In this document: positions 635-41,248 of the stretch, piece after piece
Position numbering within the stretch: position 1 is the stretch's first letter
Layout of the letters: every line of letters begins with the position of its first letter
Sequence record: PQ666542
Strand: one strand, 5' to 3'
Source: Shigella phage sb4
Length of the DNA: 64,000 bases
The notes under the pieces: generated by a model
What the model was told of the DNA's origin: nothing
Seen by the model: only the letters and a program-made list of their open reading frames with translations
The model's database searches: none
Program-made: the position numbers and the translations under genes

Positions 635-652
635 AAGGGGCCGAAGCCCCTT
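635..652 (-). terminator. C(UUCG)G tetraloop hairpin after regA
   Basis: AAGGGGCUUCGGCCCCUU on transcribed strand followed by U-rich tract. Confidence 0.55.
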
Positions 653-654
653 GC

Positions 655-1023
655 TTAATTACCAATCGTATATTTAGGAACGAGTTTCCATTCATGTTTT
701 TGTTTAAAAGAAATAACTCGGGAATTATTGGTTAAATCTTTCATAAAAGTTCTTTGACCAGGAACGTTTTCAATCAGTCCCCAATCTTCTAACAGCCACG
801 CAATCGAATCACGACGAACTTCATCTTCTTCTGTCATTTCAACCTGACGGCCATCCATACGAAGCATTTCTTTAAAATGAACGATATAGTATAGTCCTTT
901 TTTCTGAAGAATGCGGCAGGACTGATACAGAACTTTATCTTTATTATTAGCAATTCCCATACGAGTCAAGGTTTCTTTTACTTTCAGAAAATCTTCAGGT
1001 TTTTTAAGAGTAATTTCAATCAT
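655..1023 (-). CDS. regA: translational repressor RegA
   Basis: 122 aa, MIEITLKKPEDFLKVKETLTRMGIAN...; position between 43 and 62 as in T4. Confidence 0.9.
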   Translation of the reverse strand: MIEITLKKPEDFLKVKETLTRMGIANNKDKVLYQSCRILQKKGLYYIVHFKEMLRMDGRQVEMTEEDEVRRDSIAWLLEDWGLIENVPGQRTFMKDLTNNSRVISFKQKHEWKLVPKYTIGN

Positions 1024-1024
1024 T

Positions 1025-1588
1025 TTACCATTCCAATGCTAGTTTTTTGAGTTGTTTCTGTTCTTTTACATTCTTATTCACTTCTTTCAAAAAATAATAC
1101 GTGACTAAAACTTTTAGTTCTTTTAATAATAAATGAAGTTTTCCATTTTTAGTAATAATTTATTTATATTTAATTTCATCATTTGTATTAACTTGATACC
1201 GCTTAGCAAGTAACTTAATAATCAATACTTCGGTAGAATCTTCGACCAGTTTTGCCCATTTACCATATCTTTTACCCCGAGGAACAGCAGCCATCAGATA
1301 ATTAAAATGGGCTTCATCGCTTAAACCTGATCCAATTAAATTCATCGCATATACAGCTGGCATGCATTCAGGAAATTGTGATAATGCGTTCTCAACCATG
1401 TATTTTGAATAATCTTTTTGAGCAATAGAGAATTTAGTTTTATTATTAATAGCTCAAATTATTTCAAAAAATTCATTTTCAGCTTTTTCCTTAAAAGAAT
1501 CAGCAGCAGATTGGACAGCTGTCCAATCTTTTGAATACCAAGCAACTTGATGCTCGTTTAATTGAATATCATCTTCAAATAAGCTCAT
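1025..1588 (-). CDS. 62: clamp-loader subunit gp62; interrupted by in-frame TGA (1454-1456) and TAA (1160-1162)
   Basis: [22 protein letters not shown]... continues in one frame through both stops to ...KKLALEW; 187 codons; stop overlaps regA start, start overlaps gene 44 stop. Confidence 0.85.
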
Positions 1589-1589
1589 A

Positions 1590-2549
1590 TCACTTCCACT
1601 GCATTTCGCATGCTAATTGAATGAAAAGATATGCTAAATGTAATTCAGTATAAGCCGCAATTCCATGATACTGGTTATTTTCACCAACAATTTCATACAT
1701 ACGAATAATACTTTGCGGAGTTACGCGTGTATAGATTTCTTCGGCAAGTTTACCTACGAACCACGAATAATCAGCTGCATATTTTGGCGCTAAAGCTCTG
1801 AGTTGTTTAACATCTTAATTTTTGAGAGATTCATGAACATCATCAATAGCACCACGATCGTTAGTAACCAGTGATAAAATACCAGCATCCAAAACACCTT
1901 TAGATAAATAACTATCGAGCTCGCCAATAGTTTTACGAAAATCAGGAAAATTCTTTTTAACCAAAGCTGCTACAACTTTCATATCAGCTATAGCAATTCC
2001 TTCATGCTTGCAGATTTCAGTCAATCGACGAATCATCTGCTTCATCATTTCAATTTTATCTTCATCGGTCGGTTGACCGAATGTAATAACTCGGCAGCGT
2101 GACTGAAGCGGTTTAATAATACCATCAATATTGTTAGCAGTAATTATAATACTACAGTTTGAACTATAAGCTTCCATAAAGGAACGAAGATGTCGCTGAG
2201 ACTCTGCTAACCCAGAACGGTCAAATTCATCAATAACGATTACTTTTTGACGACCATCAAATGAAGCTGCACTAGCAAAATTAGTCAAAGGACCACGAAC
2301 GAAATCAATTTTACAATCTGATCCATTCACAAACATCATATCAGCATTTACATCATGACACAATGCTTTTGCTACAGTTGTTTTACCTGTTCCTGGAGAA
2401 GGAGAATGAAGAATAATATATGGAATTTTACCTTTACTTGTAATATATTTAAAGGTTTCTTTATCAAAGGCGGGAAGAATACATTCATCGATAGTAGATG
2501 GACGATATTTCTGTTCAAGAATGTGTTCTTTTTCATTTACAGTAATCAT
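1590..2549 (-). CDS. 44: clamp-loader ATPase gp44 (AAA+); in-frame TAA at 1815-1817
   Basis: [17 protein letters not shown]..., Walker A GTGKTT, 319 codons in one frame across the stop; track ORF start is a TTG extension. Confidence 0.9.
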
Positions 2550-2580
2550 AATTTCCTCATTCAAGTTTTAGTGTAAATTT

Positions 2581-2597
2581 AAGGGCCGAAGCCCTTT
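2581..2597 (-). terminator. UUCG tetraloop hairpin between genes 45 and 44
   Basis: AAAGGGCUUCGGCCCUU. Confidence 0.5.
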
Positions 2598-2598
2598 A

Positions 2599-3285
2599 TT
2601 AAAAATCGTGGGTAGAATCAGCTTCAAGAGCTACTACATAATTCGCGTGTTCACCTTCAAATTTAGCAGCACCTTGTTTACCTTTTGCCCAGAGCAGAAG
2701 TTTATAATTTCCTGGTTGCATTTTCATATTTGCCATATTGATAATGAAATTAAATTTATTTTCACCGTCATAATCACCAAGAGTCAAAGAATATTTAACA
2801 CGGGTCAAAGCAGAATCTTCTACTTTATTAAAACCGTTAATTACAATTTTACCTTCTTTTACTGTGATAGCAATTGTATCAATCTGCAGACCGCGAGATA
2901 CACGCAACAGCTGTTGAAGGTCTTCAGCTTTAATTTCGGTAACAACAGATGCTACCGGGAATGGAATTGGTTTATTAGGAGCAACTACTGTACTCGGATC
3001 GGCTGCTGGCCAAAAAATTGTTGAACGAGCATCAGCAATTTTAATATTTCCATCTTCTGACTGGGAAATTTCTGCATCGTCATTAACTAGAGACAGAATA
3101 CCGAGAAAACCGTTCAAATCGTAAATTGCTACATCAAAATCAATAGTGTCAGAAATTTTTGCTTCCGCATAAGTTCTACTATTAACTGCGCGAGTCATAA
3201 TAAATTGACCAGATTTAAGCATAATACCAGAGTTAATGGTAGCGAAATTTTTAAGCAGAGTAGTAGTATCTTTAGACAGTTTCAT
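2599..3285 (-). CDS. 45: sliding clamp gp45
   Basis: 228 aa intact ORF, MKLSKDTTTLLKNFATINSGIMLKSGQFIMTRAV... Confidence 0.9.
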   Translation of the reverse strand: MKLSKDTTTLLKNFATINSGIMLKSGQFIMTRAVNSRTYAEAKISDTIDFDVAIYDLNGFLGILSLVNDDAEISQSEDGNIKIADARSTIFWPAADPSTVVAPNKPIPFPVASVVTEIKAEDLQQLLRVSRGLQIDTIAITVKEGKIVINGFNKVEDSALTRVKYSLTLGDYDGENKFNFIINMANMKMQPGNYKLLLWAKGKQGAAKFEGEHANYVVALEADSTHDF

Positions 3286-3340
3286 GTAATTTCCTTCAAT
3301 TCAAATTAGATTTAATTTTATAACTAATTTAATAAATCAA

Positions 3341-39767: not shown

Positions 39768-39810
39768 TTCATTCTCCAAGTTGTTTTTCTGTATCAGTAG
39801 TTGATAGTTG

Positions 39811-39842
39811 TATAGTACCATGGAAGAACAGGGATGTAAACC
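39811..39842 (-). promoter_or_regulatory. early promoter
   Basis: GGTTTAC...GGTACTATAC. Confidence 0.45.
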
Positions 39843-39979
39843 GTTTTGTGAAAAATTTTTTAAAAATTTTTAGGGAATTCTAGGGCAGGGAGGGGCAATT
39901 AAAAGATAGGATAATATATTATAAAGGGTATAAACTAAATGATGCCTAGAGAGGTCCAGAAAGGCCTAGATACCAAAAA

Positions 39980-39998
39980 GCCCTATCATTTAGATAGG
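39980..39998 (-). terminator. rho-independent terminator after the IP-like gene
   Basis: CCCUAUCUAAAUGAUAGGG followed by CUUUUUGG. Confidence 0.55.
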
Positions 39999-40007
39999 GA
40001 TTTAAAA

Positions 40008-40571
40008 TTATTTGCCTAGTTTAGTTATTATAGCTTCGGCAGCAGCTTTTAGCTTAGATGCGGTGTTAATACGATTTTTAATTTCAGTATACGCATCGCC
40101 AAGAACATCAAGGCTATCAGAATAAACACTTACACTATTGCGTTCGCTATTTGAAATAGAACCTTTAGTTTTACGATCAAAATCGGTGTACACGTCTTGA
40201 AGATCGCGGGCTGCCTTCTTTGCATCATCCAATGCATCAAGAGCTTTATTCAAAGCATTAACGTATTTTTTAGTGTCGAACATATTCTTAGAAATTTTAA
40301 CAGGTGCACGTTCAGGAGTAGCTAATACAGATTTAGGAACCTGAGCGCCAGATGCCAATTTCTTAGAAATTTTGAAAAATGCTTTATTGAATTTATTTTC
40401 TTGACTCATTGTAAAAGAACTATTATCGATGTTGTACATTTCAATAGCTTTAGCTTTCCACTTAAGAAAATCGCCGCGGTCTTTTGGGTCCAATTGGAAG
40501 AATACTTTAGTAAGATCTGCTTCAGATGGTAATTTTGCTGCTTCGGTTAAAAATTCGGCATAGGTTTTCAT
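40008..40571 (-). CDS. internal-protein-like packaged protein with capsid-targeting-type N-terminus
   Basis: 187 aa; N-terminus MKTYAEFLTEA resembles the T4 internal-protein targeting sequence MKTYQEFIAEA. Confidence 0.6.
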   Translation of the reverse strand: MKTYAEFLTEAAKLPSEADLTKVFFQLDPKDRGDFLKWKAKAIEMYNIDNSSFTMSQENKFNKAFFKISKKLASGAQVPKSVLATPERAPVKISKNMFDTKKYVNALNKALDALDDAKKAARDLQDVYTDFDRKTKGSISNSERNSVSVYSDSLDVLGDAYTEIKNRINTASKLKAAAEAIITKLGK

Positions 40572-40665
40572 TTAAAATCCTTGAAATAATTTATCGGTTG
40601 GTTATTAATTATTTATTACTTTGTTACTATCCGTAGCAGCATTCTCTATGTGATTCAAACTAAAA

Positions 40666-40689
40666 AGCCCCAACCTTTCAGTCGGGGCT
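40666..40689 (-). terminator. hairpin terminator between the two IP-like genes
   Basis: AGCCCCGACUGAAAGGUUGGGGCU followed by UUUUUAG. Confidence 0.55.
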
Positions 40690-40696
40690 AAGAATG

Positions 40697-41170
40697 TTAT
40701 TTGATTTGTTTAGCAGACCAAATGCGGTCTTTAATAATTTTTTGGATGTCTTCAACATACTCAAGAGAGTGAACATGTGGATTATCTTTGAAACTATAAG
40801 CACGGGCTAACTTTTGGCCTTCGGTTTTGATTACTAAAAGCTCTTTAAGGATAGCTTCATATTTAGAGATAATTCCTTTAACGATATTTTTTTCTTGTGC
40901 CGCTTTAGGATCTGCTTTAGGAGCAGGTTTACCCGAAGGCTTTGCAAAAGCAGCGCCAGTAGCAACTAAACTTTTCCAGGCCATACTAACTGCATTTCCC
41001 GTAAATCCTTCTGCTTTCATGTCGCGAGCAAATTGGAATCGTGATTCGTCAGAAGCATCTTTATAGGAATATTTACCCGCTGCAATGGCTGCTTTTGCGA
41101 CAGCTTGAATTTCGGTGCTAGATGCTTCATTTAACACCGCTTCATTTAAAAATTGAGCATATGATTTCAT
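40697..41170 (-). CDS. internal-protein-like packaged protein with capsid-targeting-type N-terminus
   Basis: 157 aa; N-terminus MKSYAQFLNEA; paralogous start to neighbour. Confidence 0.6.
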   Translation of the reverse strand: MKSYAQFLNEAVLNEASSTEIQAVAKAAIAAGKYSYKDASDESRFQFARDMKAEGFTGNAVSMAWKSLVATGAAFAKPSGKPAPKADPKAAQEKNIVKGIISKYEAILKELLVIKTEGQKLARAYSFKDNPHVHSLEYVEDIQKIIKDRIWSAKQIK

Positions 41171-41224
41171 CTTATTTCCTGTTTTAATTCGTGGATTTAA
41201 TATACTACTGTATTTATACTAAAA

Positions 41225-41248
41225 AGCCCCAACCTTTCGGTTGGGGCT
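41225..41248 (-). terminator. hairpin terminator upstream of IP-like gene (near-duplicate of 40666-40689)
   Basis: AGCCCCAACCGAAAGGUUGGGGCU followed by UUUUUAG. Confidence 0.55.

Follow-up and report, generated by a model that had tools for sequence, protein, structure and literature searches.

Sense-strand C(UUCG)G hairpins in the early region of a T4-type Shigella phage as probable graded terminators and 3'-end elements

Several of the gaps between genes in the early region of Shigella phage sb4 (sequence record PQ666542) hold a short G/C-rich hairpin, most often with the loop UUCG. What are these hairpins, and what do they do? A preliminary description of the 64,000-nt stretch analysed here (the window) had listed nine such sites and suggested, in guarded terms, that they act as terminators or 3' stability elements. 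The window comes from a Tequatrovirus, that is, a T4-type genome: its first 12 kb match hundreds of Tequatrovirus genomes at 97-98% identity, its position 1 corresponds to about T4 position 29,318, and the T4 gene order is kept through the 5' part of 43, regA, 62, 44, 45, 46, 47, a-gt and 55 and on through the nrd genes, rI, tk, regB, e and the tRNA cluster. All of these genes lie on the minus strand, so that the "transcribed strand" of the preliminary description is the minus strand. We consider it likely that the hairpins are the known C(UUCG)G elements of T4 early and middle mRNA working as graded intrinsic (Rho-independent) terminators and 3'-end protectors. Beyond identifying the window as a T4-type genome, the check offers an example of RNA structure under selection, with covarying stems, a fixed loop, a strict strand bias and anchoring to stop codons.

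Hairpins of the window and their T4 counterparts

An exhaustive stem-loop census of the window recovered seven C(UUCG)G hairpins with stems of 6-9 bp, every one on the sense (minus) strand, and no UUCG hairpin with a C-G closing pair on the plus strand. Both the existence of the hairpins and their sense-strand specificity are thus direct observations. These seven, an eighth UUCG site that the preliminary description had missed and two related hairpins with GAAA loops are as follows.

635..652, minus strand: hairpin AAGGGGC-UUCG-GCCCCUU, 2 nt past the regA stop and 58 nt before the gene 43 start; -13.7 kcal/mol; tail from the G/C core UUAUUUGG; identical in T4
2581..2596, minus strand: hairpin AAGGGC-UUCG-GCCCUU, 2 nt past the gene 45 stop and 31 nt before the gene 44 start; -9.8 kcal/mol; without a clean U-run
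7289..7308, minus strand: hairpin UAAAGGGC-UUCG-GCCCUUUA, 5' arm including the a-gt stop codon; -11.8 kcal/mol; tail GUUUUAUACGGAG including the Shine-Dalgarno (SD) sequence of 47.1; identical in T4
8559..8578, minus strand: hairpin AUAGGAGC-UUCG-GCUCCUAU, 5' arm including the a-gt.2 stop (UAG); -16.0 kcal/mol
10931..10942, minus strand: eighth UUCG site, GGGC-UUCG-GCCA, after 55.3
24102..24121, minus strand: hairpin AGGGAGCC-UUCG-GGCUCCCU, then UUUUUAUUU, 1 nt past the nrdC.11 stop; -17.7 kcal/mol; canonical intrinsic-terminator form; identical in T4
27983..28000, minus strand: hairpin AGUCUCC-UUCG-GGAGACU, then UUUUUCAUUUU, 4 nt past the rI.-1 stop; -10.8 kcal/mol; canonical intrinsic-terminator form
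38257..38278, minus strand: hairpin AUAAGGGGC-UUCG-GCCCCUUAU, 2 nt past the e.6 stop and 17 nt before the e.5 start; -15.6 kcal/mol; without a clean U-run, the SD GGAG coming next
40666..40689, minus strand: GAAA-loop hairpin, 10-bp stem, then UUUU; intrinsic-terminator form; -17.7 kcal/mol; follows the first of two tandem phrog_2280 paralogs
41225..41248, minus strand: GAAA-loop hairpin, 10-bp stem, then UUUU; downstream of the tRNA/stable-RNA cluster; -20.6 kcal/mol

All nine sites listed in the preliminary description are intergenic and read on the minus strand as it had said. Its motif, GGGC-UUCG-GCCC or a close variant, describes the seven UUCG sites, four of them exactly and three with the stems GAGC/GCUC, AGCC/GGCU and CUCC/GGAG; the sites at 40666 and 41225 have GAAA loops. 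We folded each site, and the predicted minimum free energies of the seven UUCG hairpins (-9.8 to -17.7 kcal/mol) are in keeping with the description of them as extra-stable. Six of the seven had folding-energy z-scores between -2.8 and -4.0, and the regA site had a z-score of -1.9. CTTCGG occurs 29 times in the window against 13.6 +/- 4.1 expected, a count that 0 of 100 shuffles reached, and GGGCTTCGGCCC with at most two mismatches gave six matches where 0.43 were expected, every one of them on the minus strand. No other loop is as common as UUCG among the strong hairpins on the sense strand of the early region; among those of the late genes, the 17 kb at the right end of the window, it did not occur.

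Each of the seven hairpins starts 0-5 nt past a stop codon (of regA, 45, a-gt, a-gt.2, nrdC.11, rI.-1 and e.6), and at 7289 and 8559 the stop codon itself forms part of the 5' arm. In outline, an A-rich flank leads into a G/C core stem; the stem carries a UUCG loop with a C-G closing pair, a U-rich flank comes next, and the whole is set a few nucleotides past a stop codon. The preliminary description had the hairpins "usually followed by" a U-run. This was true of two of the seven UUCG sites, 24102 and 27983 (U5-6), with interrupted tails at the other five; including the two GAAA hairpins, the only others with an uninterrupted run, four of the nine listed sites have one. Since the stem finder carries stems on into the U-tract by way of A-U pairs, we counted tail U's from the end of the G/C core, and on that count all seven UUCG sites have 4-7 U per 8 nt. 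A consensus terminator scan of the sense strand was positive at 24102, 27983, 40666 and 41225 and weakly so at 7289 and 8559, and made no call at 635, 2581 or 38257.

T4 carries hairpins at the homologous sites, identical to those of the window at five of them and differing by a few bases at 45|44 and e.6|e.5. The 55.3|55.2 copy at 10931-10942 also differs from T4 by a few bases; it is weakened by a private U-to-A change (-5.6 kcal/mol, z of 0), where T4 reads GCCUUUUU and phage ime09 reads GCCCAUUUU. The CUUCGG stem-loops of T4 mRNA were reportedly first described by Tuerk et al. in 1988 (PNAS 85:1364). The window's C(UUCG)G hairpins are these already known elements: they share with them the hexamer, the C-G closing pair, the mRNA-sense orientation and the intercistronic location, and as direct homologs they show no substantive difference. 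The literature agrees with the preliminary description in treating such hairpins as typical of T4-type mRNAs. T4 mRNA is where CUUCGG hairpins were discovered, and the intergenic regions of T4 have them in abundance; their unusual thermodynamic stability and the reverse-transcriptase stops that they cause are established properties (PMC4371310; PMC8948821). Another study describes T4 intergenic stem-loops "like transcription terminators", often with UUCG (PMC1702504).

The combination of such a hairpin with a promoter is likewise known, since 2010, from the early-promoter stem-loop cassettes called PeSLs. According to Arbiol et al. 2010, who worked on the RB49/phi1 pair, a PeSL stem-loop cut lacZ read-through as strongly as rrnB T1 (PMC2839356), and PeSLs are also described for the PST/T4 pair by Comeau et al. 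2014 (PMC4122927). The UUCG loop is not singled out in the portions of these two papers that were available, and the TERMITe preprint makes no statement on loop sequences.

Selection on the RNA and anchoring to the upstream stop codon

Is it the structure or merely the sequence that has been kept? We compared 80 loci around regA (98% to 50% protein identity), 31 around nrdC.11 and 15 around e.6. At orthologous positions in most lineages the stem sequence differs, and the loop is UUCG, UACG or UCCG, occasionally GAAA. A tetraloop hairpin was present in 39-89% of orthologous gaps compared to 3-8% of dinucleotide shuffles, and UNCG loops arose in <0.12% of the shuffles. Downstream of gene 45 the hairpin stands at the same place even where gp45 identity has fallen to about 50%, and at least 12 different stems occur there. 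When 18 of these hairpins were aligned on their loops, eight of eight pairs had changed on both sides, the covariation score was 0.686 against 0.19 in shuffles (0 of 500 shuffles reached 0.686), and pairing collapsed when the register was slid. The gp45-down hairpins had been picked by the stem finder, and the dinucleotide-shuffle control on whole gaps is the fairer test. Elsewhere, orthologous hairpins at regA|43 carry covarying stems, those downstream of rI.-1 are terminators with different stems, those downstream of a-gt.2 are present in other lineages, and those downstream of e.6 have loops of UUCG, UCCG, UUU or AAA.

The strand bias extends well beyond the window. In groups whose regA is >=95%, 73-84% and 59-69% identical, we counted 14, 53 and 13 strong tetraloop hairpins with UUCG in the sense orientation, against 0, 1 and 1 with any antisense UNCG; in the most distant group (regA 50-55% identical) the preference for sense UUCG was gone. 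A palindromic stem folds on either strand, so that the strict orientation of the loop indicates that selection acts on the sense RNA. Covarying stems, persistent UNCG loops and strand bias together point to selection on the RNA.

Across T-even-type loci we collected 152 distinct sense UNCG hairpins, 151 of them in non-coding sequence. The median distance from the stop codon to the hairpin was 3 nt vs. 56 nt from the hairpin to the next ATG; 105 of 146 hairpins began no more than 8 nt past the stop codon, 27 overlapped it, and for 79% the upstream side held under a quarter of the free gap. This anchoring to the upstream stop codon marks the hairpins as 3' elements of the upstream cistron.

The preliminary description also contrasted intact hairpins with disrupted coding regions. 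The nine listed hairpins are indeed intact; the contrast carries no statistical weight. Within window positions 1-42500, essential genes (43, 62 twice, 44, 47 and others) contain in-frame nonsense substitutions and no frameshifts, examples being at 45, 1161, 1456, 1817, 6955, 20991, 22262, 22455, 25185, 28896, 30089, 30155 and 31003. Relative to at least three close relatives, we found 411 private substitutions in 28.6 kb (about 1.46%), distributed 88:91:191 over codon positions 1:2:3 and including 12 nonsense changes. The window looks as though about 1% of unselected random point changes had been laid over natural variation, and sequencing or assembly noise, mutagenesis or artificial perturbation would be candidate sources. 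The seven UUCG hairpins span 134 nt, in which 1.3-2.0 substitutions are expected and none would occur with P = 0.14-0.28. Two of the window's ten hairpins do carry private changes, namely the weakened 55.3|55.2 copy and that at 40666, in which one C-G pair has become U.G. Given these odds and these two changes, the contrast is uninformative on hairpin selection.

Proposed graded termination, 3'-end protection and the alternatives

If the hairpins are 3' elements, do they all end transcripts? The class is not uniform. Over the UNCG hairpins of T-even-type loci, the 8 nt past the core hold a mean of 4.4 U, compared to 2.7 for other hairpins and about 2.4 expected from composition, and the 5' flank is correspondingly A-rich. 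Tails with at least six U (24% of the class) are followed by an early-promoter motif in 20 of 36 cases vs. 6 of 115 for the others (odds ratio 22.7, p = 2e-10, a class p-value that is inflated because homologous sites in related phages are counted more than once). Strong U-tract terminators thus pair with downstream early promoters, and operon-internal copies are weak-tailed. In the window, promoter motifs follow four of the UUCG hairpins.

621..626, minus strand: TATAAT, a -10-like hexamer, 8 nt 3' of the regA hairpin
8533..8556, minus strand: middle-promoter-like motif, with a perfect MotA box TGCTTTA, spacer and TAAAAT, directly past the 8559 hairpin
24043..24071, minus strand: early-promoter motif (G)TTTACA-N17-TACTAT, 30 nt downstream of the 24102 hairpin, in PeSL layout
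27938..27966, minus strand: early-promoter motif (G)TTTACT-N17-TACTAT, 16 nt downstream of the 27983 hairpin, in PeSL layout

Stem-loop and promoter form an early-promoter cassette at 24102 and 27983 and a middle-promoter cassette at 8559. The first two match the PeSL arrangement of stop codon, stem-loop, U-tract, GTTTAC(W)-N17-TAYWAT promoter and then SD, and the third matches its middle-promoter counterpart, the PmSL, in having a stem-loop followed by a MotA box and a -10. Past the orthologous rI.-1-down hairpin GTTTAC is kept in nearly all lineages, and TGCTTTA or TGCTAT boxes stand at the equivalent place past the a-gt.2 hairpin in other lineages. Like PeSLs, the window's cassettes are dispersed repeats, and differences in gene content are seen next to some of them. 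Unlike PeSLs, the hairpins at 2581, 7289 and 38257 lie inside conserved operons and are followed by no recognisable promoter, only by a ribosome-binding site belonging to the next gene, and that at 635 has only the conserved -10.

The favoured explanation is accordingly a graded one. The strong sites with uninterrupted U's (24102 and 27983, and the GAAA hairpins at 40666 and 41225) would stop transcription efficiently and so end early transcription units, and a promoter directly past a strong site would restart transcription, which is the PeSL terminator-promoter cassette. The operon-internal sites with interrupted tails (635, 2581, 7289 and 38257, and 8559 ahead of its middle promoter) would let most polymerases pass and probably pause transcription or terminate it weakly. 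With Rho-independent terminators the window's sites have in common a G/C-rich stem, a short stable loop, and A-rich 5' and U-rich 3' flanks; they differ in that most UUCG sites have interrupted or short U-tracts and stand 0-5 nt from a stop codon, so that the weak-tailed ones are probably leaky or non-terminating. By analogy, the main job of such weak sites may be to cap RNA 3' ends, arising by leaky termination or endonucleolytic processing, against host 3'-5' exonucleases, and through this capping the upstream message would become more abundant than it otherwise is in relation to the downstream one.

Elements of this kind are known elsewhere. The mRNA decay-terminator hairpins, such as the REP elements in malEFG and the puf operon stem-loop of Rhodobacter, sit at the 3' end of the upstream cistron in a polycistronic message without a good U-tract; as barriers to 3'-5' exonucleases they could favour expression of the upstream cistron over that of the downstream one. 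Their anatomy fits the window's sites; they have no sequence relationship to them, and at the T4 sites protection is a prediction. For the hairpins of the window we infer both the termination efficiencies and the 3'-end protection. The guarded wording of the preliminary description, terminators or 3' stability elements, is supported: the T4 counterparts, the literature, the stop-codon anchoring and the RNA-level selection all fit it.

Several points besides the inflated p-values weigh against this explanation. Three or fewer U's are found in the tails of 23% of the class, and past the gp45-down hairpin a U-tract is almost never seen, whichever the lineage; termination at weak-tailed sites may be negligible, and their role in 3' protection is proposed by analogy only. 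The percentage of paired positions in the gp45-down alignment is partly circular, because its hairpins were chosen by the stem finder. In the literature searched, we found no genome-wide map of T4 transcript 3' ends.

Could the hairpins instead serve the cistron that follows? Endonucleolytic cleavage upstream of a hairpin would leave the downstream mRNA headed by a very stable stem-loop, hindering 5'-end-dependent RNase E; such 5'-end stabilisation is reported for the T4 gene 32 leader (PMC8948821), and in read-through transcripts the hairpins do lie upstream of the next gene's ribosome-binding site. However, their position is tied to the upstream stop codon rather than the downstream start, and their A-rich 5' and U-rich 3' flanks are the signature of terminators. 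Moreover, at five of the ten window hairpin sites a promoter motif stands between the hairpin and the next gene, and transcripts from that promoter would be without the hairpin. We therefore regard stabilisation of the downstream 5' end as unlikely.

A slightly less probable alternative places the primary role at the DNA level, with hairpin-promoter cassettes acting as dispersed recombination repeats for modular shuffling and any effect on the RNA being secondary. The PeSL papers propose just such a role, with cassettes as recombination points in a mini-circle model (PMC2839356; PMC4122927). Together with early promoters, the hairpins make up the top direct-repeat families of the early region (D3/D5, D14 and D1/D2/D4/D13), and gene-content differences adjoin them: T4 has mobB inserted directly past the a-gt.2 hairpin, in ime09 and many other lineages an extra open reading frame (ORF) separates regA from the hairpin, and tandem paralogs are flanked by the GAAA hairpins. 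Yet a DNA repeat would need no strand bias, and the sense orientation of UUCG is essentially absolute. A stem whose sequence is replaced without loss of the structure or the UNCG loop is what selection on RNA folding would leave, as opposed to selection on sequence homology, and in the conserved replication operon the 45|44 and regA|43 hairpins are stable in position. A recombination-repeat role is more likely a by-product.

The least probable of the alternatives makes the hairpins translation-gated attenuators, in which a terminating ribosome would cover the 5' arm and block folding, so that polymerase reads through only when the upstream cistron is translated, and in messages left untranslated, for instance through repression by RegA or cleavage by RegB, the hairpin would form and lead to termination or to trimming back as far as the hairpin. 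The closeness to stop codons already described, with two window 5' arms including the stop, and the weak U-tracts at operon-internal sites would suit a conditional terminator, but such closeness is expected anyway in a compact genome that must fit a promoter and a ribosome-binding site downstream, and the strong terminators at 24102 and 27983 are equally close to stop codons, all of which makes the model very improbable. Confined to the operon-internal UUCG hairpins, which would fold once translation is shut off (by RegA, by RegB or late in infection), terminate transcription or pause polymerase, and cap the message, it is only marginally less of a long shot; if true, translation gating would link the T4 translational repressors to transcript architecture at every cistron boundary.

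Promoters, repeats and neighbouring features

With graded termination and 3'-end protection as the preferred reading, what is the TATAAT past the regA hairpin? In most lineages with the regA-down hairpin it stands 6-10 nt to the 3' side (at two loci it is found about 17 nt further downstream), and is kept across lineages while the stem and the preceding GGAG vary. Conservation of TATAAT beside a variable GGAG marks the motif as a probable -10 element, so that 621-626 is probably the -10 of a gene 43 promoter, as judged from this comparison, and gene 43 transcripts would then probably begin just upstream of the gp43 operator hairpin (GAGCCUAAUAACUCGGGCU, window ~580-610). Two other readings of this site were tried and rejected. 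The "GCUU" of G-C(UUCG) was rejected as the core of a MotA box, as its spacing to the regA|43 TATAAT is 15 nt and not 11-13, and other lineages carry GAC-UUCG at regA|43. A RegB module, in which a GG|AG cut would yield a hairpin-capped 3' end, is contradicted by the regA|43 GGAG not being conserved (GTAG, GGGG and CTGG also occur). At 7289 and 38257, GGAG is the SD of the next gene. One study reports the 47.1 GGAG to be moderately cleaved by RegB (PMC1702504), and the module may thus apply at 7289.

The SD region of nrdC.10 (24008-24018, minus strand) reads GGAGAAUAAAA and fits exactly the 11-nt RegB/S1 cleavage consensus given in that study (PMC1702504). The 24102 terminator is 84 nt upstream of this region, and the early promoter stands immediately before it.

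An identical 20-nt stretch, AAGGGGCUUCGGCCCCUUAU, comprising the shared hairpin arms and adjacent bases, occurs at regA|43 (626-655) and e.6|e.5 (38250-38279), in both cassettes followed by a similar UUGGAGUA-A tail. In principle, recombination between these direct repeats, 37.6 kb apart, would be possible. Among the direct repeats of the early region, the largest families are the T4 early promoters GTTTAC...GGTACTATACAACTATC on the minus strand, with similarity reaching well past the -35/-10 hexamers. Their copies are as follows.

11771-11839, minus strand: early-promoter repeat
22593-22661, minus strand: early-promoter repeat
24030-24095, minus strand: early-promoter repeat
27914-27967, minus strand: early-promoter repeat
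39788-39869, minus strand: early-promoter repeat
43385-43466, minus strand: early-promoter repeat
43728-43796, minus strand: early-promoter repeat

The two GAAA hairpins are themselves a 40-nt repeat with 90% identity. They belong to a tandem pair of paralogous ORFs, 40697-41170 and 40008-40571, both of phrog_2280, each preceded by a near-identical GAAA-loop terminator; the first is also preceded by a late-promoter motif, TATAAATA.

41211-41218, minus strand: late-promoter motif TATAAATA, directly past the 41225 hairpin

The N-termini of the two paralogs (MKSYAQFLNEA... and MKTYA...) presumably resemble the capsid-targeting leader of T4 internal proteins. From its layout, the segment 40008-41250 looks like a cassette-mediated duplication in a region adjacent to internal-protein and tRNA genes.

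T4 has mobB between a-gt.2 and a-gt, and the window does not. The tRNA cluster of the window (41565-42396) comprises ten tRNAs (Arg, Asn, Tyr, Met, Thr, Ser, Pro, Gly, Leu and Gln), which were the sole matches in the window in an Rfam search at the gathering threshold. The T4 cluster has eight tRNAs and is interrupted by segB; the ten of the window are nearly contiguous, with a largest gap of 12 nt.

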